Positions 940-56,760 of a stretch of DNA of 64,000 nucleotides are shown in pieces. Origin of the DNA: a virus (lineage: Duplodnaviria > Caudoviricetes). The notes beneath the pieces are model-generated. The model saw only the letters and a list, made by a program, of their open reading frames with translations, did no database searches and was not told the DNA's origin. The first letter of the stretch is position 1, and every line of letters begins with the position of its first letter. The stretch is taken from positions 1 to 64,000 of the IMG/VR virus record IMGVR_UViG_3300027820_000029; one strand, written 5' to 3'. A program made the position numbers and the translations under genes.

Positions 940-990
940 TAGACTAGCCAATGGATAAGCATTGGCAGGGTCGCTAAACCTTTTCGTCTA
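940..990 (-). promoter_or_regulatory. Endonuclease-leader three-way-junction motif, copy A
   Basis: TAGAC-GAAAAGG-tttagcga-CCCTG-CCAATG-cttatc-CATTGG-CTA-GTCTA upstream of RBS of 293..913. Confidence 0.75.
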
Positions 991-1002
991 TATCTCTTTT
1001 AA

Positions 1003-1182
1003 TTAAGTTGTAAATTCATACTCTCCAACTACATTGCCGAATAGTGTATCTCCATCCTTTATAGAAATACCCTCTTTTATTGCTTCTAATGTTTCTTGAA
1101 AAGACTCTTTAAATTCTTCTTTATCTATAGGTTTTAATGACTGGAAGGTAATAACAAACCGCCCTTTTACATTACTTTTCAT
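1003..1182 (-). CDS. hypothetical protein
   Basis: ORF track 1003..1263; likely start MKSNVK at 1182. Confidence 0.55.
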   Translation of the reverse strand: MKSNVKGRFVITFQSLKPIDKEEFKESFQETLEAIKEGISIKDGDTLFGNVVGEYEFTT

Positions 1183-1207
1183 AAATATCCTTTTTATTAT
1201 GTTCTTT

Positions 1208-1486
1208 CTACCACCAATATTCCTTTGGCCTTCTAGCCAAAGGAAATTCCGGGGCATCATCATAATTTATTAGTTTTTTAGTTCTTTCTTCTAATGCCTT
1301 TTCTTTAGCTCTATGTGGTCTGATATGGTACAATTTTTTAAACCACCTCGGACCTTTATCAATGGCGTAACCTTTAAAGCCTTTATCAGAAAAATGCTTA
1401 GCAATTTGTTGCTTTTCGTACTTCGCATTATGCTTATTTTCCCAGATAAAAGCTTCTTCTAATCTTTTTCTATATGTTCTTGACAT
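1208..1486 (-). CDS. hypothetical protein (MSRTYRK... basic phage family)
   Basis: ORF track; GGAGA RBS before ATG at 1486. Confidence 0.7.
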   Translation of the reverse strand: MSRTYRKRLEEAFIWENKHNAKYEKQQIAKHFSDKGFKGYAIDKGPRWFKKLYHIRPHRAKEKALEERTKKLINYDDAPEFPLARRPKEYWW

Positions 1487-1574
1487 TTTGATATCTCCTG
1501 TACTACAGATAGATATCATCCTTCCATTTTAGAATCATATTATTACTCCTTAAAAATAAAATTATACTTTACTT

Positions 1575-1746
1575 AAAAAATTACTAAGCATTCACAACTC
1601 TAGCTACATTTGTTATGTTGTGTAATTGTTAGTTGGTCATGACTCCAACATCTAGAAACGCTAAAACTATTACTCCCCAATTACACCAGTTTTGGGAATC
1701 GAACCCATTGGATCATCACTTTAGTATTAGTACTTAGTAATTTTTT
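1575..1746 (-). ncRNA. candidate structured ncRNA with tRNA-like T arm
   Basis: 16-bp closing stem, TGGG-TTCGATT-CCCA hairpin, GTGTAATTG/CAATTACAC helix, GTTGG/CCAAC hairpin; lies in tRNA cluster with no ORF. Confidence 0.5.
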
Positions 1747-1752
1747 AAATAT

Positions 1753-1821
1753 TGTTCCTACAGGGATTCGAACCCTGGTTTTCAGCTTGAGTAGCTAATG
1801 TCCTCACTAGACGATAGGAAC
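1753..1821 (-). tRNA. tRNA-Glu(CTC), short D loop, A at position 33
   Basis: GTTCCTA/TAGGAAC acceptor, TTAGC-TACTCAA-GCTGA anticodon arm, CAGGG-TTCGAAT-CCCTG T arm. Confidence 0.8.
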
Positions 1822-2012
1822 TCTTTTTCTAAAAGTTCTGCTAAAATATCTAAAGTATTTTGTGGAACCATTAATTTTTGTTCTTTAAAAGAGTTTGAAC
1901 AGGCTTTTATATAATTTATAGTTACTCTTATTCCATTTTGTTCGCCTGCTATATATGCCTTAGTAAATTCTTCTTTTAATTTTTCTCTAACTTTTGTATC
2001 TTCTATATTCAT
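1782..2012 (-). CDS. hypothetical protein overlapping 5' half of tRNA-Glu
   Basis: ORF track; stop codon lies inside the tRNA. Confidence 0.55.
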   Translation of the reverse strand: MNIEDTKVREKLKEEFTKAYIAGEQNGIRVTINYIKACSNSFKEQKLMVPQNTLDILAELLEKEFLSSSEDISYSS

Positions 2013-2021
2013 AATTTGTGC

Positions 2022-2093
2022 AGCTCCTACCAGGAATCAAACCTGGTTCTATTGGTTACAAGTCAATTGCATCATCATTTATGCTTTAGGAGC
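2022..2093 (-). tRNA. tRNA-Thr(TGT)
   Basis: GCTCCTA/TAGGAGC acceptor, CT-TGT-AA loop, CCAGG-TTTGATT-CCTGG T arm (T for C in loop), A at position 8. Confidence 0.8.
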
Positions 2094-2115
2094 ATATTTT
2101 ATCTCTCTACTAGAA

Positions 2116-2385
2116 TTAATTGTTTAACAGTTTTTGTTCAGTTACTTCTTCTACTACATGCATCTTATTTAAATTAACATTACATTTAATAAGCTGTAAA
2201 CAATCTACTTCTCCAATATACATATGTTCTTCTATTATTTCAAATTTATACTCATTAAAAAATTTAGATGATGAAAATATTTCTGGCAGACTAGATAAAT
2301 AGGGACCTTTATCCATATCTTTTCCTAAGAAGAAATTACTTCCATCCTTAAAATATACTTTAATAAAATATGCATTTTTAAACAT
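2116..2385 (-). CDS. hypothetical protein
   Basis: ORF track, packed in minus-strand operon. Confidence 0.6.
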   Translation of the reverse strand: MFKNAYFIKVYFKDGSNFFLGKDMDKGPYLSSLPEIFSSSKFFNEYKFEIIEEHMYIGEVDCLQLIKCNVNLNKMHVVEEVTEQKLLNN

Positions 2386-2737
2386 AATTAAATTCTTCTA
2401 TAGAAGGTTCAGAATCTGTACCATAAGTACAGTCAGAAGCATATTTCTCATCCCAAGGAGTGAACCAATATTCAGCTGCTTCTCCTATTTCTTCCCTTAC
2501 AATTTCATAGTAAAGATTTTCATCCCATTCATTTTCTTCTTTAAATTCTTCTTCGGTAGTCCCAAAGCCATGCATTCCATGCATATTTTCAGAAATTTCT
2601 CTAGCTTTTTCATATAATTCATCACAGAATTCACTTTCTATTTTATCTTTAGACCAAGTATCTGGATAAGTTACTATAGCTTTAATAGCTTCCATGTTAG
2701 TATAACAACCATATTCACAAAAATATTCTTTAATCAT
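2378..2737 (-). CDS. acidic hypothetical protein
   Basis: ORF track, overlaps neighbour. Confidence 0.65.
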   Translation of the reverse strand: MIKEYFCEYGCYTNMEAIKAIVTYPDTWSKDKIESEFCDELYEKAREISENMHGMHGFGTTEEEFKEENEWDENLYYEIVREEIGEAAEYWFTPWDEKYASDCTYGTDSEPSIEEFNYV

Positions 2738-2885
2738 TAGTCAATCTCTCAAATTGTTCTTTAGCAGTTTCATATGTTGTACCATTAAATTCCCAGTAGA
2801 TAATTTTATCTAATGTTCCTTGTATTTGATAATGATACTGTCATAAGGTAAGTCTATGTTTCGATTCTAAAAAATATGGGTACAT
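2730..2885 (-). pseudogene. small ORF interrupted by one in-frame TGA (2841-2843)
   Basis: MYPYFLESKHRLTL*QYHYQIQGTLDKIIYWEFNGTTYETAKEQFERLTND; first ORF after promoter 2917-2945. Confidence 0.45.
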
Positions 2886-2916
2886 TTTGTGCGCCTTTTG
2901 TTAATTCAATATAAAT

Positions 2917-2945
2917 ATTATACAGAAATTAGGGTTATAAGTCAA
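2917..2945 (-). promoter_or_regulatory. sigma70-type early promoter
   Basis: TTGACT-N17-TATAAT. Confidence 0.85.
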
Positions 2946-2948
2946 GAC

Positions 2949-3161
2949 TTATTTTTTCGATTCTTTCTGAGTTTCCTTATATAGTTTTATCACAGTTTTT
3001 ACAAAAGGGTCAACAAGTTCTTCCTTTATATTATTAACGGGTATATATACTTTACAATTATCTAGTTGTATTTCTATAAAAGATATTTTAGGTGACAATC
3101 GTGGTACTCGCTGAAATAATCTATTTAAAAGCGCCTTTGATTGTTTACCTTTAATATCCAT
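2949..3161 (-). CDS. hypothetical protein
   Basis: ORF track, coupled to upstream stop. Confidence 0.6.
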   Translation of the reverse strand: MDIKGKQSKALLNRLFQRVPRLSPKISFIEIQLDNCKVYIPVNNIKEELVDPFVKTVIKLYKETQKESKK

Positions 3162-3529
3162 TATAAATACTCTAATAGATCTTCGTTTTTCTTATCTAGT
3201 TTTTTCCACGTTTCCATATTCATAGGAATATGCTTAATATTTAATCCTTTATATGCTCGTAGCATGCGTTTTAGCTTTCGTTTTGTTGTAGTTTTATCAA
3301 ATGAATAATTCCAATAAAATCCATCTACTTCGCCTTGAGCTTTAGGTACATATAAACAAAAATCATATTGATTTCTAGTAGGTACATCAAACCAAAAAAG
3401 AATATGATATTTATTTCTAAAATGTACTCTAAGTCTAGGCATAATTTGAATAAGATTTTTCTTATAATTATACATCATATATCCAGGATATTCTCCTGAA
3501 AACTCACATACTTTTTCAATACTAGCCAT
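3161..3529 (-). CDS. hypothetical protein
   Basis: ORF track. Confidence 0.65.
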   Translation of the reverse strand: MASIEKVCEFSGEYPGYMMYNYKKNLIQIMPRLRVHFRNKYHILFWFDVPTRNQYDFCLYVPKAQGEVDGFYWNYSFDKTTTKRKLKRMLRAYKGLNIKHIPMNMETWKKLDKKNEDLLEYL

Positions 3530-3793
3530 TAACTAAATACCCTTCTAATTAATGTTGCTGACACACATAATCCTAGTGCAAAAATAAATACAGAAAATAT
3601 ACCAATAAGAGGTAAAAATGGCAGAAAGGGTAAAATTAATATATCCATTACCAACACCTATAATCGGTAATATTTTTCTCTTTCTTACATTTACGACATT
3701 TAATATAAATTGTATTTCCAATACCTGTAGGATACACCATATACATTATACCACTTTTGCATTTTTTATAATGTTTTTCGCTAAAATTTTTTT

Positions 3794-4033
3794 CTATTTC
3801 TTTGATATATCCTGACAACATAATTCTGTTTCTTCCCTTAATTTAATTACATCTTCTATTTTTGCATTTCTCCACACAAAAATATCATATGGTTCTATTT
3901 CTATATAACCACCTAAACTATAATCATATTCACCAATAAGCCTCTCCTCTACTTGTAAAATAAGTATATAACTTCTAAAAAGACGTTTTTGTACTATGTA
4001 TCTAGTTTTACCTGTTAAATTTTTACTATCCAT
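3794..4033 (-). CDS. hypothetical protein
   Basis: ORF track. Confidence 0.6.
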   Translation of the reverse strand: MDSKNLTGKTRYIVQKRLFRSYILILQVEERLIGEYDYSLGGYIEIEPYDIFVWRNAKIEDVIKLREETELCCQDISKK

Positions 4034-4051
4034 GCATTTCCTTGGTAGGTA

Positions 4052-4255
4052 TTAGCATTTATTAATATATTCTTTTCTGCCTTCAAAGAGTTCTATATTA
4101 TTTTCACTTTCCCAGTATCTAAATATAAAACCTTTAATTTCTAAAAATAATATAGTTCTATCTAATTCTTTAATTATTTTCCATCTACCAGTTATGTCTA
4201 CAGGTACCCAAGTCCACCCATATTCTCCCCACCTAATTTTTTTATGTACTCGCAT
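4052..4255 (-). CDS. hypothetical protein
   Basis: ORF track. Confidence 0.55.
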   Translation of the reverse strand: MRVHKKIRWGEYGWTWVPVDITGRWKIIKELDRTILFLEIKGFIFRYWESENNIELFEGRKEYINKC

Positions 4256-4868
4256 ATTTAAATGTTTCAGTATTGCCTCCCTTTAATAAATTAGTATTAA
4301 CTTTTAAATGTTCTATATTAGAAAGCCATTCTGCTTCTAACTTCATTGCAGCATCACCAGTATCAAAATTTCTTTCTAATATAACTTCATAAGCTTTTAT
4401 AGATAAGTTATTATCTGTCATTCTTTCTTTTAATGTTTTAGATGTAACACCTATTTTATATAAATTATGTTTGGGTATGTATACTAGATATGTAATACCT
4501 GGTTTATCACTAGATATTTTGCCAGTATTATTTTTAACACCACAATGCCCATCCCCTCTCAATTTAGAATTAGGTTCACATAAATATTCTGTATTGCAAA
4601 GTAAACATTTATGTAAAATTTTTGTATGGGCATTTATATAATCTTCTATTCGTATTGTATTTGGATTCTTAATCAAGAGCTCAGCATCATATTCTTTATT
4701 TGTTTTTGACATTTTATTATTTTTACTTTTCAATCCTACTTTTTTTGCCTGTTTTCCTATTGCGCCAGGACTTCTATCTAGCACTTCAGCTATATCTTTA
4801 TATAATAATCCTTCATTTACTAACATTATTAAAATTTCTCTATCTTCTTGTGTCCATAATTTACTCAT
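4242..4868 (-). CDS. putative homing endonuclease: 1 Myb-like HTH + Cys module + GIY-YIG/T5orf172-like domain
   Basis: LWTQED repeat; KILHKCLLC..C; GITYLVY...LYKIGVTS...LEAEWL; paralogous to 5737, 9272, 11931. Confidence 0.72.
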   Translation of the reverse strand: MSKLWTQEDREILIMLVNEGLLYKDIAEVLDRSPGAIGKQAKKVGLKSKNNKMSKTNKEYDAELLIKNPNTIRIEDYINAHTKILHKCLLCNTEYLCEPNSKLRGDGHCGVKNNTGKISSDKPGITYLVYIPKHNLYKIGVTSKTLKERMTDNNLSIKAYEVILERNFDTGDAAMKLEAEWLSNIEHLKVNTNLLKGGNTETFKYAST

Positions 4869-4893
4869 TTTTATTCCTTATCGAATATTAAAA

Positions 4894-4944
4894 GTAGACT
4901 AGCCAATGGATAAGCATTGGCAGGGATATCTCCTTTTCATCTAC
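4894..4944 (-). promoter_or_regulatory. Endonuclease-leader three-way-junction motif, copy B
   Basis: GTAGAT-GAAAAGG-agatat-CCCTG-CCAATG-cttatc-CATTGG-CTA-GTCTAC. Confidence 0.75.
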
Positions 4945-4963
4945 ATCTCTTTTAATTAGGGTT

Positions 4964-5048
4964 TTCGGCTACGGAGGAATCGAACCTCATACCCTCCACC
5001 TAGCGTTTAGGGTTCGGCTTAGAAGACCGAGGCCAGGGGCATAGCCGA
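4964..5048 (-). tRNA. atypical tRNA-Arg(TCT): vestigial D arm, long extra arm
   Basis: TCGGCTA/TAGCCGA acceptor (extendable), TCGGT-CTTCTAA-GCCGA anticodon arm, ACCCT/AGGGT extra arm, GAGG-TTCGATT-CCTC T arm. Confidence 0.65.
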
Positions 5049-5070
5049 AATCATCTCCATCACTGGGAGT

Positions 5071-5292
5071 TTAATCTTTAATACTAGAATAATGCTCGCC
5101 TGTTGGACCATTTTGACCTATTATATCTATCCTAGATATTTTCCTAGTAGGAGGGTCAATCAGTTGAATACTGCTATAATACATGCCTTTTCGCCACTCT
5201 ACAGCCTCTTGGTTATTCATCCAACGAGGTGGGCTAGTTTTATATAAATAGAAGTCTGCTATGCCTGTTAGAAATGCTTGTGACTTATCCAT
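5071..5292 (-). CDS. hypothetical protein
   Basis: ORF track. Confidence 0.6.
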   Translation of the reverse strand: MDKSQAFLTGIADFYLYKTSPPRWMNNQEAVEWRKGMYYSSIQLIDPPTRKISRIDIIGQNGPTGEHYSSIKD

Positions 5293-5457
5293 AATATCCT
5301 ATACCTATAACAGTTAAAAGTAAAATAATAACTGCAAGTAAAGTAACAGTTACTATACAGAAAATATCTTTACATCTATCCATAATATCCAGCCAATAGA
5401 ATTGCTGCCAATAATACGATTACTGTTATAACTACAGTTGCTGCTATACACATAACT

Positions 5458-5736: not shown

Positions 5737-6624
5737 TCATTTATTCTCCAATCTAAACGTTTCTGTATTGCCACTATTAAGTAATCCTGTGTTAACTTTT
5801 AAATACTGTATATTAGAAAGCCATTCTGCTTCCAATTCCATCGCGTTTATTCCTTTATCAAAATGTCTTTCTAATATAACTTCATAATCTTTTATGCCAA
5901 TGTCCTTCATTCTTTTCTTTACTGTTCTAGATGTAATTCCTATTTTATAGAGCTTTTCATTCGGAAAATGTATTAGATAAGCTATGCCTGGTTTATCTTT
6001 AGGTATTCCATTAAGTTGTCTACCACAATGTCCATGCCCCTCTAATTTATGATTAGGAGCGCATAGATATTCTGTCCCGCAGATTAAACATTTATGTAGA
6101 ATCTTCGTGTTTGCTCCTTTATACTCTTCAATTCTTATTGTATCTGGGTTTTTAATTCTGAGCTCGGCATCATATTTTTCATTGGTTTTTATTCTATTAC
6201 TTTTTAATTCTAAGTTATTTGTCTTAGCTTTTATTGCACTAGTACTTCTACCTAATAAAAGTCCTATATCCTTATGCATAGTACCTACTTTTATTTCTTT
6301 TCTTAATACTTCTTCTTCATTTTTAGTCCAATTTTTTCTTCCTATACCTAATTTAAATACTTTAAATTCTATTGCTTTTATACTTCTGTCTACTACTTCA
6401 GCTATATCTTTATAGGGTAATCCTTCATTTACTAACATTATTAATATTTCTATATCTTCTTCAGTCCATTTTTTATTTTTACTTATTTTTAATTTTCGTG
6501 CTTTTTCACCTACTGCTCTATAACTTCTATCTAATATTTCAGCTATATCTTTATGCATAGTACCCAATTCTATTTGTTCTTTTAATACTTTTACATCATC
6601 TTCTGTCCATAGTCTTCTACTCAT
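5737..6624 (-). CDS. putative homing endonuclease: 3 Myb-like HTH repeats + Cys module + GIY-YIG/T5orf172-like domain
   Basis: WTEDD/WTEED/WTKNE repeats; GIAYLIHF...LYKIGITS; paralogue family. Confidence 0.75.
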   Translation of the reverse strand: MSRRLWTEDDVKVLKEQIELGTMHKDIAEILDRSYRAVGEKARKLKISKNKKWTEEDIEILIMLVNEGLPYKDIAEVVDRSIKAIEFKVFKLGIGRKNWTKNEEEVLRKEIKVGTMHKDIGLLLGRSTSAIKAKTNNLELKSNRIKTNEKYDAELRIKNPDTIRIEEYKGANTKILHKCLICGTEYLCAPNHKLEGHGHCGRQLNGIPKDKPGIAYLIHFPNEKLYKIGITSRTVKKRMKDIGIKDYEVILERHFDKGINAMELEAEWLSNIQYLKVNTGLLNSGNTETFRLENK

Positions 6625-6658
6625 TTTTATTACTCCTTATTAGTTTTATATAATAAAA

Positions 6659-6711
6659 GAGAGCTAGATAATAAATAAGGTATTATCAGGGAGATCAGCC
6701 TTTTCGCTCTC
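6659..6711 (-). promoter_or_regulatory. Endonuclease-leader three-way-junction motif, copy C
   Basis: GAGAGC-GAAAAGG-ctgatct-CCCTG-ATAATA-ccttatt-TATTAT-CTA-GCTCTC. Confidence 0.75.
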
Positions 6712-6742
6712 AAATATTTTTTAAATTTTTATTTAATCGTAC

Positions 6743-6771
6743 ATTATAACAAAATATAAGCTTAGTGTCAA
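6743..6771 (-). promoter_or_regulatory. sigma70-type early promoter
   Basis: TTGACA-N17-TATAAT, immediately upstream of motif C. Confidence 0.88.
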
Positions 6772-6838: not shown

Positions 6839-7039
6839 TTATAATTCATCTCTAAATTTAATAAATCTATTTAATCCTAAAGATATCATAATAATAGTAA
6901 TTACATAAGATGTTGCTAGTATTTCTATAGCAAATATTGTATAATATTTTAATGCTAAAGCAGCACCAATAATATAAATTACTAATCCAATTACAATTAA
7001 TATATACCCAATTATTTTATTTCGTATAATGTTCAACAT
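6839..7039 (-). CDS. small membrane protein (2 TM)
   Basis: ORF track; two hydrophobic stretches. Confidence 0.6.
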   Translation of the reverse strand: MLNIIRNKIIGYILIVIGLVIYIIGAALALKYYTIFAIEILATSYVITIIMISLGLNRFIKFRDEL

Positions 7040-7544
7040 ATTGTTTCCAATCCTTATGCTTGATTTCTTTATATTTTAACATTTTAACTACTAACTCATG
7101 ATAAGTAGGTCTATAAGGCCTATGCTTTGGAATAATATTATGATTATTCTTTTTAGCTTGATTACATTTTTTACATGCTGTAACTGAATTTGTCCAGCTA
7201 TGCCTGCCACCATGACTTTTAGGTTTTACATGATCTATAGTTAAAGATCGTGCAGAAAATCTAGTATGGCAATATTGACAAGTAAAATTATCTCTTAATT
7301 TTAAATTAAACTTAGACCATTTAGCATATACTTTAAAATGTTTATAAGTAGCTAATACAATTACTGAAGGAACCTTATATTTTTCATTAATTGTACTTAC
7401 CCATTCATCTTCATAAAAAGAAACAGGTATAGCTATACCTTCATATATTTTTTTAAATGCTTTTTGCCAATGAATAGTAGAAAGAGGTACTAAATTCAAG
7501 GGCATATAGTCTGCATTTAACTCTAGTACCATTAAGTCTTTCAT
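7017..7544 (-). CDS. HNH endonuclease (McrA-like, LVLNADY-type)
   Basis: RDNFTCQYC...LTIDHVKPKSHGG..SWTNSVTACKKCN. Confidence 0.9.
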   Translation of the reverse strand: MKDLMVLELNADYMPLNLVPLSTIHWQKAFKKIYEGIAIPVSFYEDEWVSTINEKYKVPSVIVLATYKHFKVYAKWSKFNLKLRDNFTCQYCHTRFSARSLTIDHVKPKSHGGRHSWTNSVTACKKCNQAKKNNHNIIPKHRPYRPTYHELVVKMLKYKEIKHKDWKQYVEHYTK

Positions 7545-8531: not shown

Positions 8532-8558
8532 TGACCTTTCCTTTCATTTAATATAAAT

Positions 8559-9156: not shown

Positions 9157-9763
9157 TTATGAATATCTAAATGTTTCTGTATTACCATCTTTGAGTAATT
9201 TAGTGTTAATTTTTAAATGCTCTACATTTTTAAGCCATTCTTTTTCTACTGCCATCGCACTTTTCCCTTTATCAAAATGTCATAATTTCATATTCTGGCA
9301 TACCATACATCCTTCGTTTTACTGTATTAGATGTAACACCTATTTTATATATATCTTCATTTATAAAATATATTAGATAAGTTATAGCTGGTCTATCTCT
9401 AGATACTTCTCCCTTACCAGTGCCACAATATCCTTCTAATTTATGATTAGGAGCACAGAAATACTCTGTTCCGCAGACTAAACATTTATGTAAAATTTTT
9501 GCATCAGCATTTATATAATCTTCTATTCTTATAGTATTTGGATTTTTAATCTTTAGTTCGACATCATATTGTGAATTTGTTTTTAATGCAAAATTTTCAC
9601 TTTTTAGATTTAATTTATTCATTTTAGCATAAATTGCACTGCGACTTCTTTCTAGAAGAAATGCTATATCTTTAGCAAAAGCCCCTAATTTTATTTCTTC
9701 TTTTAATAATTCTTCTTCTTCTTTTGTCCATCTTCTACCCATTTTTTTATTACTCCTTAACAT
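9157..9763 (-). pseudogene. frameshifted member of the Myb-HTH/GIY-YIG-like endonuclease family
   Basis: ORF 9272..9763 stops at YEIMTF*; the conserved tail HFDKGKSAMAVEKEWL...GNTETFRYS* continues in another frame to 9157. Confidence 0.8.
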
Positions 9764-11930: not shown

Positions 11931-12677
11931 TTAACACTTAAAGGTTTCTGTGTTGCCATCATTTAATAATCCTGTGTTAACTTTTAAATGTTTTATATTT
12001 TCGAGCCATTCTTTTTCTAACGCCATTGCATCTAAGCCTTTGCCAAAGTGCCTTTCTAGTATGATTTCATATTCTTTTGCGCCTATACCCCCCATTCTTT
12101 GTTTTACTGTTCTAGATGTGATACCTACTTTGTATAGGTTTTCATTTGGAAAATGTACTAAGTAAGTTATCCCTGGTTTATTACTAGGTATTCCATTACC
12201 TTGATTATCTTTATAATTACAATGTTTTTTACCTTGTAATTTACCATCAGGGCTACATAAATGTTCAGTATTGCAAATAATACATTTATGTAGGATTTTT
12301 ATATCCCTTCCTTTATAGTCTTCAATTCTTATTATATCTGGATTTTTAATTTTTAGTTCGGCATCATATTGCTCATTAGTTTTTAATATTTTTCTATTTT
12401 TACTTTTTAAGTCTAATCTAGCTGCTTTATTTTGTATTGCTTTAAGACTTTTATTCAATAGAATAGATATTTTTTGTTGTGTACTACCTAATTCCATTTG
12501 TTCTTTTAATATTTTTATATCTTTTTCAGACCATTTTTTTATACCTAATCTATGTGCTTTTAATTGTACTGCTTTTGTACTTTTATCTAATATTTCAGCT
12601 ATATCTGTATGTGTAGTACCTAGGGCTATTTCTTCTTTTAATATTTCTATATCTTCTTCAGTCCATCTTTTAGCCAT
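11931..12677 (-). CDS. putative homing endonuclease: 2 Myb-like HTH repeats + Cys module + GIY-YIG/T5orf172-like domain
   Basis: WTEED/WSEKD repeats; GITYLVHF...LYKVGITS...LEKEWL. Confidence 0.75.
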   Translation of the reverse strand: MAKRWTEEDIEILKEEIALGTTHTDIAEILDKSTKAVQLKAHRLGIKKWSEKDIKILKEQMELGSTQQKISILLNKSLKAIQNKAARLDLKSKNRKILKTNEQYDAELKIKNPDIIRIEDYKGRDIKILHKCIICNTEHLCSPDGKLQGKKHCNYKDNQGNGIPSNKPGITYLVHFPNENLYKVGITSRTVKQRMGGIGAKEYEIILERHFGKGLDAMALEKEWLENIKHLKVNTGLLNDGNTETFKC

Positions 12678-22457: not shown

Positions 22458-22667
22458 TTATGCAAATTTAATGAAGCCCTTAAAATCTACCGCTAATTCG
22501 TATGGAGCATAATAAAATACTTCAGACACAAAATCATTTATATCTTCAAATTCGATCTCGAATGTTTCATCAATATCTTTATTTTCAGATTCAGAATTTT
22601 TCGATACCCAACATTTTCCATTTGAAATTGGGGTGTCATGTTTAATATGTAAGTATAATTCTTTCAT
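22458..22667 (-). CDS. acidic hypothetical protein
   Basis: ORF track; ATGA coupling. Confidence 0.6.
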   Translation of the reverse strand: MKELYLHIKHDTPISNGKCWVSKNSESENKDIDETFEIEFEDINDFVSEVFYYAPYELAVDFKGFIKFA

Positions 22668-46505: not shown

Positions 46506-46522
46506 AATATAATAAAATAAAT

Positions 46523-46570
46523 GGCGAAAAGGTTTAGCGACCCTGGTAGTACTCCGATTACTATCTAGCC
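46523..46570 (+). promoter_or_regulatory. Endonuclease-leader three-way-junction motif, copy D
   Basis: GGC-GAAAAGG-tttagcga-CCCTG-GTAGTA-ctccgat-TACTAT-CTA-GCC. Confidence 0.75.
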
Positions 46571-46595
46571 TTATTCATCGGAGAAATAGTATATC

Positions 46596-46690
46596 ATGTT
46601 AAATTAGTTAGTAGATTGCATGTATCAAGTAATCTTCAGATAATTACGGCTGAAGAGAATTTACAAAAGAGTAATAAGTTTAAAACATAG
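46596..46690 (+). pseudogene. internally deleted HNH endonuclease remnant
   Basis: GGAG RBS + ATG at 46596, then out-of-frame KLVSRLHVSSNLQIITAEENLQKSNKFKT*, matching the C-termini of 49123 and 56781. Confidence 0.8.
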
Positions 46691-47789: not shown

Positions 47790-49007
47790 ATGAAAAGGTT
47801 CTTAGTAGATATAATAAATAAATTAAATCCAGCGCAACCTGAGATTGTTGAAGATTTTGGGCAGCAACATGCACCTTCAGTGAACCTACGAACCAATCAG
47901 GCTGCTTATAATGTATTAGAAATTGTTAATCGTGGAGTTAACTTAATTGTTGATTCTGCGGCGGGCGTCCCTTTAGATGTCGGAGATATATTAGAGTTCA
48001 GTGATACAAGTACACGCATACGTAAGAAAAGATTAAATCAATTATTAAATTTTAGGCCAAATAATTTTTATAATGCTGACGTATTTAAGCGCAATATATT
48101 CTTAGATTTAATACTAGAAGGGGACGCTTTTTTATATTATGATGGGGTACATTTATATAATCTTCCTGCAACCAGCGTTAATACTATAGCAGATGAGAAA
48201 TTTTTCATTAAGCATTATGAATATAAGGAAAAAGTTTTTAAGCCAAATGAAATAATACATATAAAAGAGAATGCTTCTGATAGTATATTTACAGGTACCT
48301 CTAGATTAGATTCTGCAAAAGCTAGTCTTAACTTACTAGTTAGTATGAATTCTTTCCAAACTAATTTTTTCGAGAATTCAGCTATACCAGGTATAATTTT
48401 AACTACACCTAATCCTTTATCAGAACGTGTTAAGAATCGATTGGTTCAGCAGTGGTCGAGCAAATATAACCCTAAGCGTGGTGGAAAACGCCCGCTAATT
48501 TTGGACGGAGAATTTAAGGTAGAATCCTTATCAAAATATAATTTCAAAGAATTAGATTTTAATGAAAGTATTGCGCTACAGGAAACAAAAGTATTAAAAG
48601 CTTTAGGAGTACCGCCTGTTCTTTTAAATTCTGGCAATAATGCTAACATTAACCCTAACATGCGGATGTTTTTTATACAAACAGTTATACCTTTAGTTAA
48701 TAAGCTGACACAAGCTCTTGAGATGCAATTTGGGTATGATATTAAACCTATTACACAGAATGTTCATGCGCTACGTCCAGAGTTGCAAGATCAGGCAAAC
48801 TTCTTATCTAGTTTAGTAAATTCTGGAATCTTAACTCGCAATGAAGCTCGAGAAGAATTAAGAAAGCATCCTAAAACAGGAAACGAAGACCCCGATAACA
48901 TTGCAGATAATTTAATACTCCCTGCAAACGTTGCAGGTTCAGCACAAGATGCAGGGCAGGGCGGAAGACCTGAAGAAGACAAAGATGAACTAGAAGATAA
49001 TAAATAG
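47790..49007 (+). CDS. portal protein (HK97/T5 family)
   Basis: V.R.V.LI...LN.RPN...F...L.LEG.AF...EIIHIK...GTSRL...FFENSAIPG.IL...ALGVPPVLL...LT.NEAR. Confidence 0.93.
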   Translation: MKRFLVDIINKLNPAQPEIVEDFGQQHAPSVNLRTNQAAYNVLEIVNRGVNLIVDSAAGVPLDVGDILEFSDTSTRIRKKRLNQLLNFRPNNFYNADVFKRNIFLDLILEGDAFLYYDGVHLYNLPATSVNTIADEKFFIKHYEYKEKVFKPNEIIHIKENASDSIFTGTSRLDSAKASLNLLVSMNSFQTNFFENSAIPGIILTTPNPLSERVKNRLVQQWSSKYNPKRGGKRPLILDGEFKVESLSKYNFKELDFNESIALQETKVLKALGVPPVLLNSGNNANINPNMRMFFIQTVIPLVNKLTQALEMQFGYDIKPITQNVHALRPELQDQANFLSSLVNSGILTRNEAREELRKHPKTGNEDPDNIADNLILPANVAGSAQDAGQGGRPEEDKDELEDNK

Positions 49008-49050
49008 AATTTGATATAATACATGAGTAAATAAAAATTTTTAACAAAAC

Positions 49051-49097
49051 GGCGAAAAGGGTAATTCCCCTGCCAGTATCCTAAGTACTGGCTAGTC
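49051..49097 (+). promoter_or_regulatory. Endonuclease-leader three-way-junction motif, copy E
   Basis: GGC-GAAAAGG-gtaattc-CCCTG-CCAGTA-tcctaag-TACTGG-CTA-GTC. Confidence 0.75.
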
Positions 49098-49122
49098 ATA
49101 TAATACCCTTAGGAGGTAAAAA

Positions 49123-49824
49123 ATGAAAACGAATAAAGAAATTGTAACTGAAATTATTAAAGACTTGGAAAAGATTGTTGGACTTAACTGGCCAATAAGA
49201 AAAGATGCTAAAGTATCAAAAGAAAAATTGATAGATTGCTGGTCTGCTTATAGAAAAGATTCAGAATATAATTTTTATAATTATACACATTCAAATAGTT
49301 TAGGTATAGCATACAAAAAAATATTTATTAATATAATAAAAAATAATATTCAATCTTGGAAAAATTATATTTTGAATTTATATAATTATAAATATTGTTA
49401 TAAATGTGGAAAATTAAAAAAATTAAATGAATTTACTTTAAGTAAACATACAATGTCCAATCATGAAAGTGAATGTAAAGATTGTAAAAAAAATTATTAC
49501 CAAAATAATAAAGAAAATATACTTGAAAGAAGTAAAAAGCATTATCAGAACAATAAAGAAAAATATGCTGCAAAAGATGCAAAAAGGCGAGCAGCTAAAT
49601 TAAATCGCACGCCTGCTTGGCTCACTGAACAAGATTTAAAAGATATAGAAAGCTTTTATACTAAAACACAAGAACTAACAGAAGAAACTGGTATACAACA
49701 TCATGTCGACCATATAATTCCTTTACAAGGTGAATTAATATCTGGATTACATGTTCCTAGTAATCTTCAAATACTCCCAGCTAAAGAAAACTTACAGAAG
49801 GGAAATAAATTTGAAGTTATATAA
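49123..49824 (+). CDS. HNH homing endonuclease between portal and capsid genes
   Basis: CYKC...CKDC zinc module; HHVDHIIPLQG..ISGLHVPSNLQ...ENL.KGNKF. Confidence 0.9.
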   Translation: MKTNKEIVTEIIKDLEKIVGLNWPIRKDAKVSKEKLIDCWSAYRKDSEYNFYNYTHSNSLGIAYKKIFINIIKNNIQSWKNYILNLYNYKYCYKCGKLKKLNEFTLSKHTMSNHESECKDCKKNYYQNNKENILERSKKHYQNNKEKYAAKDAKRRAAKLNRTPAWLTEQDLKDIESFYTKTQELTEETGIQHHVDHIIPLQGELISGLHVPSNLQILPAKENLQKGNKFEVI

Positions 49825-49839
49825 TTTGGAGGGAATTAA

Positions 49840-51819
49840 ATGACAAACAAAGAATATAAGAAACCATTATTTATGACAATGGGGTTTAAAGCTGCTGAAA
49901 TTAATGAAGATAATGAAAAGTTAAAAATTGAAGGCTTTGCTAATACAACATCTAAGGACCGGCAAGGCGATGTAATACTTGAGGACGCCTGGAAAAATGG
50001 GGCATTATCTAATTACCTTAAAAACCCTATTGTTTTAGCATTTCATAATGCCGAAAAGCCCATAGGAGAAGTTGTAGAACATAGTATTACTTCTGCAGGT
50101 CTTCATGTTGTTGCAGAAATTAGTAAAGCTAGCGGAGAAATATATAATCTAATTCGAGAAGGAGTTTTAAAGGCTTTTTCCGTTGGCTTCAAAGTAGGGG
50201 ATGCTGATTATGATACAGAGACTGATATATTTGTTATTAAGCAATTAGAATTATTCGAAATATCAGTTGTATCTATTCCGGCTAGCCCAGACTCAATTTT
50301 CTCTATTCAAAAGTCTTTGAATGAGGAAGAATATTTAGAATTCAAAAATTTATACAATAAAAATCAGGAAGACGCAATAAAAATTGCAGAACCTGATATA
50401 GGAGAAGAAAACGAGATGGATAAAGACAAAATCTCTATTACTACAGAAGAATTAAAGAAATTAGAAAAAGATGCAGTAGATAAGGCTATGGCCAAGAAAG
50501 CTGCTGATGAAGCCCGTGCAGCACAGACAACTGAAGTGATTAAGAACGTTTCTACAGAAGTTGTTAGCACCGCGGAGGAAAGAATACTGCAGGAAGTTGA
50601 GAAGAGATTAACTGAGAAAGAATCAACTTTGGAAGAAACTCTTGAAGGTTTACGTGCAGATCTTAAAGAAAAGAATGATGAAATTATTGCTATGAATAAG
50701 AGCAAGATGGAGTTCGTAACTGATTCTAGCAAGAAAGCTATTATTTCTGATACAGAAAAAGAAACTGCAGTATTAGCTGCTAAAATCATGGGTGTACCTT
50801 TAGATTCAACAAAATACTTTAAGGATGTAATTACTAAAGCTGGTGGTGCTCACGTACAAAGCTTGGGTGGATTAGATACTTCTTCACCAGAAGATTGGGA
50901 GAATTTATTCTCTACTAATCTTTATGAAGATGTTAAAGGTAAAACTATTATTGAACCAATGTTTTCTAATAGGGTTGCAATGACTTCTAGAACTTTAGTA
51001 TTCCCATATAATCCAGACGCGGGGTTAGCAGAATGGGTACCAGATAGTCAGTATAAAACTGCAGGTACAGTAACAGATCCTAACTCAACCGGTGCTCTAG
51101 CTGGACAAACACATTTAGTTAAAGATAATGTTCTAAAAGCTGAAAAATTAGCTAGTAAAGAATTTATTGGCTATGAAGAAGAAGAGGATTCAATCATTGC
51201 TTTGACCCCAATTATTCGTGATGCGGTTATGCGTAGAATGGTACGTTCTACAGATATGGAGTTACTACGTGGTAATGTTGGTGCTGATTTGGGTACAGGT
51301 AATGGTTTAATTGATGGTATTTCTACATTAGCAGCAGATGCCGTTGATTATGATTATACTCAGCCAGGAACATTTGGTAGTGCTAATCCAGTAACTGTAG
51401 CTGATCTACAACAAACACGTAGATTAATGGGAGTATATGGATTAACTCCTGGCGATATTACATATATTGTAAGTCAGACTGTAATGTATGATCTTATGGA
51501 TGATCCCGATTTTAGAACAATGGATCTAGTTGGGGACCGCGCTACTATTATTCGTGGACAAATTGGTTCTATTAATGGATCTCCAGTTGTAGTATCTGAT
51601 TCCTTTGCTGCTTATGCAACAGGAACTGTACAGGCAGTTGCTCTTAATAGTTCTAACTACCTATTCGGTGAACTTCGTGGAATGATGGTAGAACGTGATA
51701 GAGATATTGTTAACCAAAGTAATGTTATTGTTGCTACACGTAGATTTGCCTTTAGTGAAATCGTACCTGCCGTAGATAATGGTGGCAGAAGTTCATGTGC
51801 TAACCTGGTAACTGCTTAA
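49840..51819 (+). CDS. prohead protease (HK97/S78) fused to scaffold + major capsid protein
   Basis: N-terminal KIEGFAN..DRQGDVI...LAFH..PIG...FSVGF...EISVVSIPA; coiled coil; HK97-fold capsid; in-frame internal GGAG/ATG at 50416. Confidence 0.9.
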   Translation: MTNKEYKKPLFMTMGFKAAEINEDNEKLKIEGFANTTSKDRQGDVILEDAWKNGALSNYLKNPIVLAFHNAEKPIGEVVEHSITSAGLHVVAEISKASGEIYNLIREGVLKAFSVGFKVGDADYDTETDIFVIKQLELFEISVVSIPASPDSIFSIQKSLNEEEYLEFKNLYNKNQEDAIKIAEPDIGEENEMDKDKISITTEELKKLEKDAVDKAMAKKAADEARAAQTTEVIKNVSTEVVSTAEERILQEVEKRLTEKESTLEETLEGLRADLKEKNDEIIAMNKSKMEFVTDSSKKAIISDTEKETAVLAAKIMGVPLDSTKYFKDVITKAGGAHVQSLGGLDTSSPEDWENLFSTNLYEDVKGKTIIEPMFSNRVAMTSRTLVFPYNPDAGLAEWVPDSQYKTAGTVTDPNSTGALAGQTHLVKDNVLKAEKLASKEFIGYEEEEDSIIALTPIIRDAVMRRMVRSTDMELLRGNVGADLGTGNGLIDGISTLAADAVDYDYTQPGTFGSANPVTVADLQQTRRLMGVYGLTPGDITYIVSQTVMYDLMDDPDFRTMDLVGDRATIIRGQIGSINGSPVVVSDSFAAYATGTVQAVALNSSNYLFGELRGMMVERDRDIVNQSNVIVATRRFAFSEIVPAVDNGGRSSCANLVTA

Positions 51820-51871
51820 TTTTTAGTAAGATATAATCTTACTAATTTTGGCTGTTTAATTTTGGCTTTAT

Positions 51872-51904
51872 GTGCCGGGGCCCTCCGGTTCCGGCACTCT
51901 TTTT
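51872..51904 (+). terminator. intrinsic terminator after capsid gene
   Basis: GTGCCGG...CCGGCAC + TCTTTTT. Confidence 0.8.
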
Positions 51905-51913
51905 AGGATAATA

Positions 51914-52486
51914 ATGGCAATACTTAATTTAAGAAATTATAAAGAGTATAAAAATATAGCAAGTAATTCAAAGGATGCTAAGCATACTAAAATTATTAAT
52001 GCTGTAAATTCTTATATACCTATCTATTGTAATAGAAATTTTACAGATTATTATGCAACAGATAAAGTTGAATATTTTGATGGAACAGTTGATGAAATAT
52101 ATCCTAAAGAAATTCCTATAATATCTGTAACATCTCTTGAGTATTCTACGAATGCTGGTCAAAATTATTTAGCCCTAACTGAATATGCACAATTTAATAT
52201 TGATTATAATTTAGATAGAATAGTATCTGTATACAGTCAATTTATAGATACAGCTTATCCAATAAATAGTTTAAAATTAACATATAAAGGCGGCTTTGAA
52301 GAATATCCAGAAGATATAGTTCAAGCCGCTGTTAGTTTAGTAGAATATTTTGATGAAGAAAATTATACTCTAAGAAAATCTTTAGCTGGAGCTAGTCAAG
52401 ATAATGTTATAATACCAGATAAAACAGCTGTATTACCTCCTCATATTAGGAGAGTGTTAGAGATGTATCGAGTTATTGCTTTATAA
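51914..52486 (+). CDS. head completion/head-tail adaptor (T5 p144-like)
   Basis: L..YK.YK.I...D...YC.R.F...P.DI.QA...LV.YF...LP.HI.RVL..YR; start moved past terminator. Confidence 0.8.
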   Translation: MAILNLRNYKEYKNIASNSKDAKHTKIINAVNSYIPIYCNRNFTDYYATDKVEYFDGTVDEIYPKEIPIISVTSLEYSTNAGQNYLALTEYAQFNIDYNLDRIVSVYSQFIDTAYPINSLKLTYKGGFEEYPEDIVQAAVSLVEYFDEENYTLRKSLAGASQDNVIIPDKTAVLPPHIRRVLEMYRVIAL

Positions 52487-53871: not shown

Positions 53872-53873
53872 TA

Positions 53874-54308
53874 ATGTCGAAAAGAAGTCAAATTGTGAAT
53901 GCATTAGTAGAAAAGCTTAAAGGTATAGATGGCTCTACTGGATTTAATACAAATTTGTACAATAACGTGGAAAATCGTTTAAAATTCTGGGATGAGGTTA
54001 ATGACTATCCTTCTGTCTATACTACTGTTGGGACTGAAACTAGAGAATACTTACCTGGGGGATTCAAGTGGGGCCACCTGCTTATTACTTTGCGAGTTTA
54101 TGTAGATGATGAAAATCCACAACAGAAATTAGAACAAATATTTGAAGATATAGAAAACGTTGTAGATAGCAACGGAAATTTAGAATACAATACGAATATG
54201 TTCACGGAAGATATTAAGATACTTCGTATAGACACAGATGAGGGTTTATTAAGTCCGATAGGTGTCGGAGAGGTAACCCTACAAATAATGTACGACTTAC
54301 AAACATAG
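53874..54308 (+). CDS. tail terminator protein (T5 p142-like)
   Basis: RS.IV.AL..KL..IDG...NV..RLKFWDEV.DYP...DEGLL.P.GVGE. Confidence 0.85.
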   Translation: MSKRSQIVNALVEKLKGIDGSTGFNTNLYNNVENRLKFWDEVNDYPSVYTTVGTETREYLPGGFKWGHLLITLRVYVDDENPQQKLEQIFEDIENVVDSNGNLEYNTNMFTEDIKILRIDTDEGLLSPIGVGEVTLQIMYDLQT

Positions 54309-54355
54309 ATAAAGATCTAATGTAAAGAGACGTACAAAAGAAAGGAGATTAAATA

Positions 54356-55819
54356 ATGGCACGATCACTAGCACGTAATACTAGTTTGTTTGCGACGTCC
54401 TTGGACGACACACTAACTGGTGCAACTAGTTTAAATACTTTTGAACTGAAGGTATTAGATGGATATAGTTTTAGTCAAGATGTAACAACACAAGAAGTGG
54501 GCGTAAACGAAGCAGGCACATCGCCTGTGAGGGGTACGCTCGGCTTTAATACTGCTCTTAATCCAGTAGATGTTAGTTTCAGTACTTATGTACGTTCATA
54601 TTCTAATACGGAAGACACCAATGGAGATACTAGATCTGCAGCAGATTGTGTTGAAAGAATACTTTGGGCATCTGCAATGGGTGATCCAACATCTTGGGCT
54701 TATGTAATTGGAACAGATGTTGGCACAGGTCATGTTATAACAGCACAAACAGACAGTGCATTAACATTTGGACTGGGTGCATCTAATGTTAATGAATTAC
54801 TATCATTAACTTTGTACTTTGTACTTGAACAAACAACTTATAAAATAACAGACTTTAATGTTTCAACAGCAGAAGTAGATTTTAGTATTGATGGTATTGC
54901 AACTATTAATTGGACTGGACAGGGATCGCGAGTTTTAGAAGCCCCGGCAGAGCATACAGCTATTGCTGCTTGGGATGCAGGGACTGAATATTTAGGAGTT
55001 CCAGCAACTACTACAAGTACTTTCTTACGTAATAAGTTAAGTACTATGGATTTAAAAGATAATGATTTAGCAACGACTCCAGCTATAGATGGAATTCAGC
55101 ACTCAGTACAAACATATACATTAGGTACTGGTACTGTTTTAGAATTTGGGGCTCAAACACTTACAGCAGCTATGGTAGGAGGTAGAATTAGAAATAATAC
55201 TGTAATTGCAGGTGATGCTGATGATATACGTGGGTGGGCAACTATTATTGCTATAGATGATGGTAATGATGAAATTACAGTGTCAGAAAATGTAGATGCT
55301 GATACTATTACAGGGTCTACTAAATGGACAGTTAGTAATGATGATTTAGATATATTTACAGCAGTTCAAAGTGCTGGAGTTGTATATAATATACCTATTA
55401 CAGGAGCTACATTAACTCTAGAAAATAACTTTACTTACCTGACACCTGAGGAATTAGCTATTGTTAACTTACCTTTAGCAGGCTTTGCAGGAAACCGTGT
55501 AACAAGTGGTAGTTTGACCGCATATTTGAATACAGGTGCTACAGGCTCTGGTGGGTTGTTATCTGATATGTTAGCAAAGATTGAAGGCTCAGTATCAAAT
55601 AACTTTGAAATTATTTTCCATATGGGAGGAGCAGCAGCAGATACTCCTAGGGTAGATTTTACTATTGCTCATGCGCAAATATCTGTTCCAACCACAAATG
55701 TGGAAGATATTATCGCTACTGAGATACAATTTAGTGGTAAGCCTTGGAGTGATTCATTAGAAGCAGGATCATTTGAGGATACTAATGAATTGGTAATTAC
55801 ATACGTACCACCAGCATAA
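54356..55819 (+). CDS. major tail tube protein (T5 pb6-like)
   Basis: L.RNT.LF...SFSQD...NEAG..P.RG...FN..LNP...SFSTY...YLTP; internal insertion, no C-terminal Ig domain seen. Confidence 0.9.
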   Translation: MARSLARNTSLFATSLDDTLTGATSLNTFELKVLDGYSFSQDVTTQEVGVNEAGTSPVRGTLGFNTALNPVDVSFSTYVRSYSNTEDTNGDTRSAADCVERILWASAMGDPTSWAYVIGTDVGTGHVITAQTDSALTFGLGASNVNELLSLTLYFVLEQTTYKITDFNVSTAEVDFSIDGIATINWTGQGSRVLEAPAEHTAIAAWDAGTEYLGVPATTTSTFLRNKLSTMDLKDNDLATTPAIDGIQHSVQTYTLGTGTVLEFGAQTLTAAMVGGRIRNNTVIAGDADDIRGWATIIAIDDGNDEITVSENVDADTITGSTKWTVSNDDLDIFTAVQSAGVVYNIPITGATLTLENNFTYLTPEELAIVNLPLAGFAGNRVTSGSLTAYLNTGATGSGGLLSDMLAKIEGSVSNNFEIIFHMGGAAADTPRVDFTIAHAQISVPTTNVEDIIATEIQFSGKPWSDSLEAGSFEDTNELVITYVPPA

Positions 55820-55855
55820 ACTAATAAACTAATAATAATAATACTATAAACAGAA

Positions 55856-55884
55856 TGAGGGGGGTAAAACCCCCTCACTTTTAA
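55856..55884 (+). terminator. intrinsic terminator after major tail gene
   Basis: GAGGGG...CCCCTC hairpin + CACTTTT. Confidence 0.7.
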
Positions 55885-55909
55885 AAGCAAAATTAAGGAG
55901 AACAAAATT

Positions 55910-56320
55910 ATGGAATTAGCTAAACTTATAGTACCCAGCAAGACTGTCTGGGTAGAATATCCTGGATTGTCAGGCTTTGAAATTGAGCTTGCGTACTTGA
56001 CCAGGGACGAATTGATGAAAATTCGTGATAGGTCTACGACCAAAAATTTCACCAGAAAAAGCAGGAAGGTTGAAGATGAAGTCGATAACGATATATTTCA
56101 ATCTGAATACTTCAGGGCAGTAATAAAAAATTGGAAGGGATTAAGATACGAATATTTGCCCAAATTAATTCCAGTTGATTTATCTGAGGTAGAAGATTTA
56201 GAGGATGAGCTTGAGTATTCTGAAAAGAACGCTGAGGCGTTAATGCGAAATTGCTCAGAATTCGATGGCTTTGTAGGTTCTATATTGGAGGAGGTTAGTA
56301 ATTTTACGAAGAGCAGTTAA
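55910..56320 (+). CDS. tail assembly chaperone (T5 p139-like, G-type)
   Basis: V..EYPG..GF.I.L.YL.R..L.K.R...I..WKGL...NFT ending; synteny. Confidence 0.85.
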   Translation: MELAKLIVPSKTVWVEYPGLSGFEIELAYLTRDELMKIRDRSTTKNFTRKSRKVEDEVDNDIFQSEYFRAVIKNWKGLRYEYLPKLIPVDLSEVEDLEDELEYSEKNAEALMRNCSEFDGFVGSILEEVSNFTKSS

Positions 56321-56715
56321 ATCTGCTCAACAAAAAATTACAAAACTTTTTTGATAATTCTGAGCTTAAAATGACTAAAGAACGGTATTTATTATTATGC
56401 GAACAGCTCGGCAATGAGCCAAAAGATAATGAGATCCCCGCCGAGTTTGAAGATTTTCCTTATACCGTGCAAACTGCTATAACTATATACCATATATTGA
56501 GTGATAGGTGGGATGGCTTTTCAGGAACTTACTTCGGAAAGGACTATTCGCTTCTACCATACTTAGTAAAGTTATATAGGATAGAAGATGAGTCTCAACT
56601 GCTTCAATTTTTATTATTAATAGATAGAATAATTATTGCAAAACGTTCAGAAGATCAGAAACGAAGAAATAAGAAAACCACCGGTAAAAAAAGTGGTATA
56701 AATATACAAGGGTGA
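56302..56715 (+). CDS. tail assembly chaperone second segment (T-type), probably reached by -1 frameshift
   Basis: track ORF 56371..56715; its frame is open from 56302, exactly at AAT TTT of upstream gene. Confidence 0.7.
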   Translation, partial: FYEEQLNLLNKKLQNFFDNSELKMTKERYLLLCEQLGNEPKDNEIPAEFEDFPYTVQTAITIYHILSDRWDGFSGTYFGKDYSLLPYLVKLYRIEDESQLLQFLLLIDRIIIAKRSEDQKRRNKKTTGKKSGINIQG

Positions 56716-56760
56716 AAAGGATAGCTTCCCTGCTAGTACCACTATTACTAGCTAGCCCTT
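56708..56760 (+). promoter_or_regulatory. Endonuclease-leader three-way-junction motif, copy F
   Basis: AAGGGT-GAAAAGG-atagctt-CCCTG-CTAGTA-ccactat-TACTAG-CTA-GCCCTT; contains the TGA stop of the upstream gene. Confidence 0.75.

Follow-up and report, generated by a model that had tools for sequence, protein, structure and literature searches.

A three-way-junction leader that probably restrains translation of phage homing endonuclease genes, with a permuted int-alpA-type junction

Homing endonucleases are toxic passengers, and their silencing by phages has been known only for a few T4-type genes, in which ad hoc hairpins are used. RNA structures sequestering the ribosome-binding site (RBS) have been described for I-TevI, I-TevII, I-TevIII, segB and Aeh1 mobE (PMC2988022). 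Two further RNAs catalogued in Rfam bear on the present case: int-alpA (RF02996), which was described in the Weinberg et al. 2017 survey and whose function is untested, and DUF3800-IX (RF02968), whose function is unknown (PMC5737381). The subject of this analysis is an RNA element present in six copies in a 64,000-nucleotide stretch of viral DNA (Duplodnaviria; Caudoviricetes), positions 1 to 64,000 of the 78,038-base IMG/VR record IMGVR_UViG_3300027820_000029, hereafter called the window. Intact nuclease genes follow five of the copies, and the remnant of a deleted nuclease follows the sixth (copy 4 in order of position). The element is predicted to be a leader of four helices (P1–P4), about 85–95 nt long, with a loop-loop (kissing) contact over the RBS. 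We propose, with a probability of about 0.7, that it represses translation of the toxic nuclease genes through pairing of the P3 loop with the RBS and through the P4 stem.

Architecture of the leader and its contact with the ribosome-binding site

The pattern GAAAAGG-N5-10-CCCTG-N15-25-CTAG matched the window six times, with no match in 100 shuffles; across the whole record the same six matches, and no others, were obtained. A covariance model, R1, was built from 52 structured pattern matches. It scored the six copies at 48–63 bits in the window, where the next best match reached 10 bits, and it returned exactly six copies from the whole record. The three-way-junction cores all run in the order P1, GAAAA, P2, CU, P3, UA, P1'. 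Three lie on the minus strand, at 939–991 (copy 1, 60.8 bits), 4894–4944 (copy 2, 50.0 bits) and 6659–6711 (copy 3, 50.3 bits), and three on the plus strand, at 46520–46573 (copy 4, the orphan leader, 48.0 bits), 49048–49100 (copy 5, 51.9 bits) and 56708–56760 (copy 6, 62.6 bits). Folding of single sequences gave the junction as the centroid structure for copy 1 and as the minimum-free-energy structure for the other five; the z-scores were modest, as is expected at about 50 nt (z = −2.8 for copy 5).

Matches of R1 from two sets of loci were collected into alignments of 62 and 96 matches. Changes on both sides of a pair were observed for 5–6 of the 6 pairs of P1 and for all 7 pairs of P3. The covariation score was reached by none of 500 shuffles in both alignments, and sliding the partner columns abolished the signal. 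P2 is a hairpin of 3–4 bp with a free loop sequence and a third pair that is variable too. Over phages of about 40–65% GC every helix varies, while next to no change is seen in the strands of the junction (UA, GAAAA and CU) or in the pairs that close them. The pair formed by the G of CCCTG and the C of CTAG covaries to U-A in relatives. The closing pair of P1, which includes the G of CTAG, is C-G, U-G or G-C in relatives, with UA remaining fixed. These bases are therefore paired positions and not invariant junction bases. The G-U pairs are confined to the sense strand: U-G closes P1 in 6–7 distinct sequences, and several others occur elsewhere. Variant junction strands were seen in some of the six copies of a complete 114-kb phage record (G002, the record of locus L019; loci L129, L130, L132 and L133), with GAAAAA, or with UCU replacing CU, and indicate positions that are tolerant of change.

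An earlier note on this DNA had placed six elements at these positions and strands and had noticed no copy elsewhere by eye. Reading all six bears out the first point, and the pattern and R1 counts bear out the second. The covariation that it saw in P1 and in the inner hairpin (P3) persists in the larger alignments, and its suggestion that G-U wobbles favour action as RNA agrees with their restriction to the sense strand. The blocks GAAAAGG, CCCTG and CTA, which it took as invariant, need correction: UA, GAAAA and CU are nearly so, and the G of CCCTG and the C and G of CTAG belong to covarying pairs. The element had also been drawn too small, as a unit of about 50 nt with three helices.

In all six window copies the P3 loop is exactly complementary to a downstream target of 6–7 nt, located 4–17 nt past P1' and 6–10 nt ahead of the start codon. 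A small fourth hairpin, P4, presents the target in its loop, and its 3' strand forms the Shine-Dalgarno (SD) core. The P3 loop CUUAUC, the target GAUAAG and the P4 stem UAUUC/GAAUA are common to copies 1 and 2. In copy 1 (minus strand), P4 spans 917–932, with the loop at 927–922, the SD in the 3' strand and the start codon at 913–911; in copy 2 (minus strand), it spans 4872–4887, with the target at 4882–4877, the SD and the start codon at 4868–4866. The P3 loop CCUUAUU of copy 3 matches AAUAAGG at 6641–6635, in a weak P4 (ACU/AGU, 6632–6644, minus strand) ahead of the start codon at 6624–6622. On the plus strand, CUCCGAU of copy 4 matches AUCGGAG at 46577–46583 (P4 UUC/GAA, 46574–46598; ATG at 46596), UCCUAAG of copy 5 matches CUUAGGA at 49108–49114 (P4 ACC/GGU, 49105–49117; start codon at 49123) and CCACUAU of copy 6 matches AUAGUGG at 56765–56771 (P4 UAUCU/AGAUA, 56760–56776; start codon at 56781).

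The same contact is found in relatives from other phages, of which 130 unique instances were collected, 129 of them with a parsed P3 loop. Perfect Watson-Crick complementarity of at least 6 nt between the P3 loop and the SD region is present in 80% of the 129, against 2% when the loops were matched to the downstream regions of other instances. The relatives with complementarity hold 52 distinct loop sequences, and its maintenance across all of these points to selection on the pairing. The target mostly ends 7–9 nt ahead of the start codon and enters an SD-like purine run in 102 of 103 relatives, and the target is flanked by a P4 stem of 4 bp or more in 86% of cases, compared with 21% of control windows. 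There is a single pairing site in the window class, a second, decoy site being found in 0 of 103 relatives. In the 114-kb record mentioned above, SDs are displayed in clear P4 loops, e.g., GCCA-CGGAGG-UGGC.

Structure, covariation, RBS pairing, association with nuclease genes and permutation (see below) are observed features of the element. As to its action, each copy would form the 5' leader of a homing-endonuclease mRNA, in which the compact three-way junction would present the P3 loop as a cis anti-Shine-Dalgarno sequence. With 6–7 Watson-Crick pairs between the P3 and P4 loops, the kissing helix and the P4 stem would each lock the RBS, and binding of the 30S subunit would be hindered, which is an established effect of RBS pairing. 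Such hindrance is also the documented means of restraining homing endonuclease genes of T4 type (PMC2988022). Judging from comparative sequence, translation is probably lowered through the pairing; nuclease synthesis would stay low or conditional even in a strongly transcribed late operon or behind the gene's own consensus promoter, and the module travels with nuclease genes of unrelated folds. Among the roles listed in the earlier note, namely translational control, an RNA partner and processing, the first is the best fit in view of the pairing between the P3 loop and the RBS, which that note had missed.

Nuclease genes, relatives in other phages and a GC-rich second class

The five intact genes belong to several architectures. 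Gene 1 (293–913, minus strand) encodes a Myb-like helix-turn-helix (HTH) with HNH (Pfam; PHROGs phrog_10822, E = 1e-44), gene 2 (4242–4868, minus strand) an HTH with a T5orf172/GIY-YIG-like domain (phrog_681, E = 4e-18) and gene 3 (5737–6624, minus strand) three HTH repeats with a T5orf172-like domain (Pfam/PHROGs). Genes 5 (49123–49824) and 6 (56781–57461), both on the plus strand, encode a zinc module with EndoVII/HNH (phrog_1035, E = 1e-24 and 2e-15, respectively). Gene 5 is inserted between the portal gene (47790–49007) and the protease/major head gene (49840–51819), and gene 6 between the tail assembly chaperone gene (56371–56715) and the tape measure gene (57482 onward). Behind copy 4, the ATG at 46596 opens a frame of three codons and a stop. 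An HNH/EndoVII-type C-terminal remnant found by tblastx follows at 46601–46690 (plus strand) and resembles the end of gene 5 (68% identity over 28 aa, E = 6e-10) and of gene 6 (E = 4e-8), corresponding to roughly the last 26–28 codons of a gene of the copy 5/6 type. Copy 4 is thus a leader left over from an internal deletion. The expectation that every copy precedes an endonuclease start is thus true for five copies and fails for copy 4, and the wider idea of a strand-specific, portable RNA module heading free-standing nuclease genes of several folds is supported.

A sigma-70-type promoter, TTGACA-17-TATAAT with TG, is predicted from consensus alone at 6743–6771 (minus strand), about 30 nt upstream of leader 3; it matches the consensus at 12 of 12 positions and is the sole such sequence in 7.7 kb. 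Leaders 1 and 2 (939–1005 and 4894–4958, minus strand) are identical over a stretch of about 60 nt that takes in P3, P4 and the SD and runs up to the start codon, and also over about 14 nt upstream of P1, and differ in P2 and, with compensation, in P1. The genes behind them have the N-terminal HTH in common and different nuclease domains, which suggests that parts of cassettes have been exchanged inside the genome. Of the leaderless nuclease-type genes taken up below, one is HNH and two are HTH with a phrog_681 endonuclease, and all are packed tightly against their upstream genes. A tRNA at 2022–2093 (minus strand) was detected by the Rfam model (53.6 bits) and not called by ARAGORN, and a T-arm-like stretch just upstream of leader 2 (GGTTCGATTCC, about 4965–4990), called by neither the Rfam model nor ARAGORN, may be a tRNA remnant. 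By sequence, the host record is that of an uncultured T5-like phage, the portal protein being about 40% identical to portals of T5-like phages; megablast of window positions 48000–52000 found no match among cultured phages.

An exact-pattern scan of IMG/VR gave more than 113 loci at the least, with P1 and P3 present in about half of the matches. When IMG/VR was scanned with GAAAAGGGTAGCTCCCC only, the 3' half being left free, TG came next in 90 of the 95 unique matches listed. The same exact pattern occurs at no fewer than 120 loci in 596 Gb of bacterial and archaeal genome contigs, where 2 of the 120 listed are structured and most are chance matches. The difference between about half structured in viral contigs and 2 of 120 in bacterial and archaeal ones indicates that the motif belongs to phages. 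Among proteins encoded downstream of relatives, 29 of 42 match phrog_1035 (EndoVII/HNH), and others match GIY-YIG, T5orf172, HNH_3 and DUF559. The leader would thus be a common, portable solution, carried by well over a hundred uncultured phage contigs at least and by nucleases of at least four folds.

The motif was not found in T5 and four other Demerecviridae phages. One copy is present in the cultured Escherichia phage EP_H11 (OP688485.1, 111 kb, pig farm) at 22497–22548 (68.5 bits; locus L362:1497-1548), where the P3 loop CCGCUU pairs with AAGCGG of the SD and the gene that follows encodes a 303-aa protein that carries no annotation and matches GIY-YIG weakly. As this is an E. coli phage in culture with one copy, a standard host is available for testing the model. 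A near-consensus promoter ends 4–8 nt before P1 in 36 of 130 relatives and in 3 of 512 control windows, this being a feature of the relatives and not of the window copies. Seven relatives have a tRNA gene within 120 nt upstream (ARAGORN), and in five P1 begins 1–5 nt past the tRNA 3' end. With promoters and tRNA ends abutting it, P1 is often the predicted 5' end of the RNA.

Leaders with SD pairing are here termed class A. About a dozen GC-rich instances without an SD partner, class B, keep the junction and have P2 and P3 capped by UUCG-type loops; examples are L086:9014-9063, L086:9872-9921, L078:9130-9180 and L063:7821-7871, and, on the minus strand, L035:3150-3199. They stand 15–17 nt past a stop codon, ahead of a U-run and, beyond it, a TTGACA/TAGAAT-type promoter with near-leaderless starts. 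By these starts the class looks actinophage-like, and the neighbours are small genes of unassigned function. Class B instances are preceded by a conserved small hairpin (ACGAG..CUCGU), and in L086 small genes are surrounded by repeats of the unit, in the manner of a terminator-plus-promoter cassette.

The translation lock and other possible roles

Several points weigh against the translation lock. All its functional steps are inferences drawn from comparative sequence. To hide an SD, a simple hairpin would be enough, and the near-invariance of the junction strands is not explained by a lock alone. Class B keeps the junction without SD pairing, which shows that the junction has some role independent of SD hiding. 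At least three other nuclease-type genes of the window (7017–7544, 9272–9763 and 11931–12677, all on the minus strand) have no leader, and neither a conserved internal promoter nor an alternative pairing that would release the lock was found. One may tentatively picture the UA/GAAAA/CU junction as a self-contained core, either a sensor or a small catalytic RNA, reused by phages and satellites in at least two circular permutations (int-alpA in one; the nuclease leader and DUF3800-IX in the other) and actively gating nuclease translation instead of serving as a passive clamp. As a sensor, the junction would be a riboswitch-like aptamer or a universal host-factor site, the occupancy of which sets the P3-loop lock and times the nuclease to the state of the infected cell. 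This version, which refines the lock and does not replace it, seems rather doubtful to us. The near-invariant junction strands and closing pairs amid variable helices speak for it, as do the two outputs of the same core, SD locking in class A and a P1 stem followed by a U-run in class B and DUF3800-IX. The decoy and real SD of int-alpA resemble a two-state switch, and in the 36 of 130 relatives with a promoter the motif lies at or a few nt from the predicted transcription start, like many riboswitches. However, no ligand is suggested by the regulated genes, the window class has its single pairing site and no decoy, and with a promoter right after class B, control of termination would have little to regulate. 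To our knowledge, natural circular permutation is also rare among riboswitches.

Conserved cores that occur in several permutations are typical of hammerhead and twister ribozymes, and the present small junction, with its conserved core and its two or more circular permutations, could be a self-cleaving or otherwise catalytic RNA, the cut freeing the nuclease mRNA from an upstream transcript or tRNA, or detaching the anti-SD arm, and in this way timing translation. Some copies do begin 1–5 nt past a tRNA 3' end, and by eye the UA-G...C-GAAA segment may resemble the stem II side of the hammerhead core. We nevertheless consider cleavage distinctly unlikely: no Rfam ribozyme family was matched at E ≤ 10, the CUGAUGA strand of the hammerhead is absent, many copies begin at their own promoter and leave nothing for cleavage to remove, and class B has terminator-like U-runs, which are held to be at odds with self-cleavage by the authors of PMC5737381. 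Little credence is likewise given to a main role in RNA ends or stability, as a 5' protective fold or as a terminator or insulator of the cassette, with SD pairing secondary. The promoters 4–8 nt before P1 in relatives, which would make P1 the 5' end of the transcript, and the class B elements at gene 3' ends with their U-run would suit such a role; against it, loop-SD complementarity is kept through 52 sequences, class A lacks consistent U-runs after P1', and simple stem-loops are enough for end protection. An action as DNA, that is, as a recombination or homing site or as the promoter of the nuclease cassette, might be read from the repetition of the element at the borders of mobile nuclease genes and from the ~60 nt identical in copies 1 and 2, which suggest exchange between cassettes. 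With helices that covary while their sequence is free, an orientation that is always that of the gene, G-U pairs on the sense strand only and a loop pairing with the RBS that would be meaningless in DNA, such a role is very improbable.

Relation to int-alpA, DUF3800-IX and other regulatory RNAs

The earlier note had recognised no known family, and direct searches agree as far as the window copies are concerned. At the gathering threshold, Rfam found only tRNAs in the whole window. Sensitive scans (E ≤ 10) of four instances gave nothing relevant apart from a sub-threshold DUF3800-IX match of a GC-rich relative, and RF02996 (gathering threshold 35.8 bits) had no match at E ≤ 1 in this record and four other motif-bearing records. 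No description of an endonuclease-linked leader, riboswitch or kissing-loop control matching the motif was found in the searchable literature. The hammerhead ribozyme was rejected as a candidate family: GAAA(A) is the only one of its strands that is present, UA and CU being the others in place of CUGAUGA, the base after CU is a paired G, and no hammerhead family was hit at E ≤ 10.

The claim of no known family does not hold for the junction itself. The consensus of int-alpA reads P1, UA, hairpin, GAAAA, hairpin, CUG, P1' and then a U-rich tail with AgGG. It has the joining strands UA, GAAAA and CU of the leader, arranged in an identical cyclic order and bounded by identical closing pairs (C|UA|G, C|GAAAA|G and C|CU|G), whereas the chain ends lie in another helix, so that the linear order differs from that of the nuclease leader. 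The unpermuted model R1 found none of ten true int-alpA RNAs from Pseudomonadales genomes. A second model, R2, was made from eight copies of the leader motif, in each of which the chain was broken at the P3 loop and an arbitrary tetraloop joined the two strands of P1. In 29 kb, the ten true int-alpA RNAs were its ten best matches, at 13–28 bits and eight of them with E < 0.01, at the Rfam coordinates and over the full length of the model. The MAFFT alignment for R2 was imperfect for two sequences, which could only have weakened the model. R2 also matches native leader copies, which is not counted as evidence because the contiguous GAAAA-P2-CU block is common to both. Taken together, the shared strands, closing pairs and cyclic order and the R2 result indicate that the junction of the leader is a circular permutation of that of int-alpA; on these comparisons, the nuclease leader is a permuted variant of a catalogued but unexplained RNA junction. 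Copies of int-alpA topology, or of a third permutation, were not found in 1.9 Mb of motif-bearing viral loci. Two true int-alpA RNAs (L354 and L355) carry the hairpin GGGUAGCUCC, identical to the commonest P2 of the leader motif; in int-alpA it follows UA and in the leader motif GAAAA, and either shared descent or a favoured stable hairpin may account for it.

Functional work on int-alpA RNA was not found in the searchable literature, and the leader offers a testable function for this orphan family. The case also shows that covariance-model searches miss natural circular permutations. Because the junction is common to int-alpA, and perhaps to DUF3800-IX, one set of experiments could explain several motifs. 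The relation to DUF3800-IX is that of the same linear order (P1, GAA., P2, U, P3, UA, P1'), a second respect in which the leader is not wholly without known kin, and it rests on one weak match: a GC-rich class B relative matched the model over its full length at 21.1 bits (E = 0.016), short of the 36.8 set as gathering score. RF02968 gave no match in this record, window copies included, or in the other motif-bearing records, there is no DUF3800 (PF12686) gene in this record or five class B records, and true examples were sought in 5 and then in 151 actinobacterial genomes and not found. DUF3800-IX also differs in its long GC-rich P1, which is followed by a U-run.

The likeness of int-alpA to the leader extends beyond the junction. 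Both occur in mobile elements, and one hairpin loop of int-alpA is the complement of a purine-rich site that lies past the closing helix (the AgGG of the 3' tail), an arrangement to which the pairing in the leader is analogous. The anti-SD loop is, however, on a different arm, and int-alpA has a proximal decoy site in addition to the real SD, whereas the leader has only the real SD, within the P4 hairpin. As for location, the int-alpA copies examined come from Pseudomonadales chromosomes, where the genes behind them are not nucleases; the leader comes from phage contigs, with nuclease genes behind it. In kissing-loop riboswitches of the guanidine-II type, a loop-loop helix between two hairpins sets the accessibility of the RBS. 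The resemblance of the leader to these is an analogy of loop-loop RBS control only, since sequence and junction are unlike and the leader has no known ligand.

The T4-type homing endonuclease genes share the presumed purpose, which is to limit or delay nuclease synthesis. In both cases the gene is embedded in phage operons, and the SD of the nuclease is hidden, or in the leader would be hidden, by a cis RNA structure. Relief in the T4-type genes comes from late promoters placed within the structure; no conserved promoter-like element was found between P3 and the SD of the leader, the late promoters of these phages themselves not being identified. The T4-type structures are simple, unrelated hairpins, whereas the leader combines a conserved junction with a predicted loop-loop contact and is common to many phages and nuclease folds.

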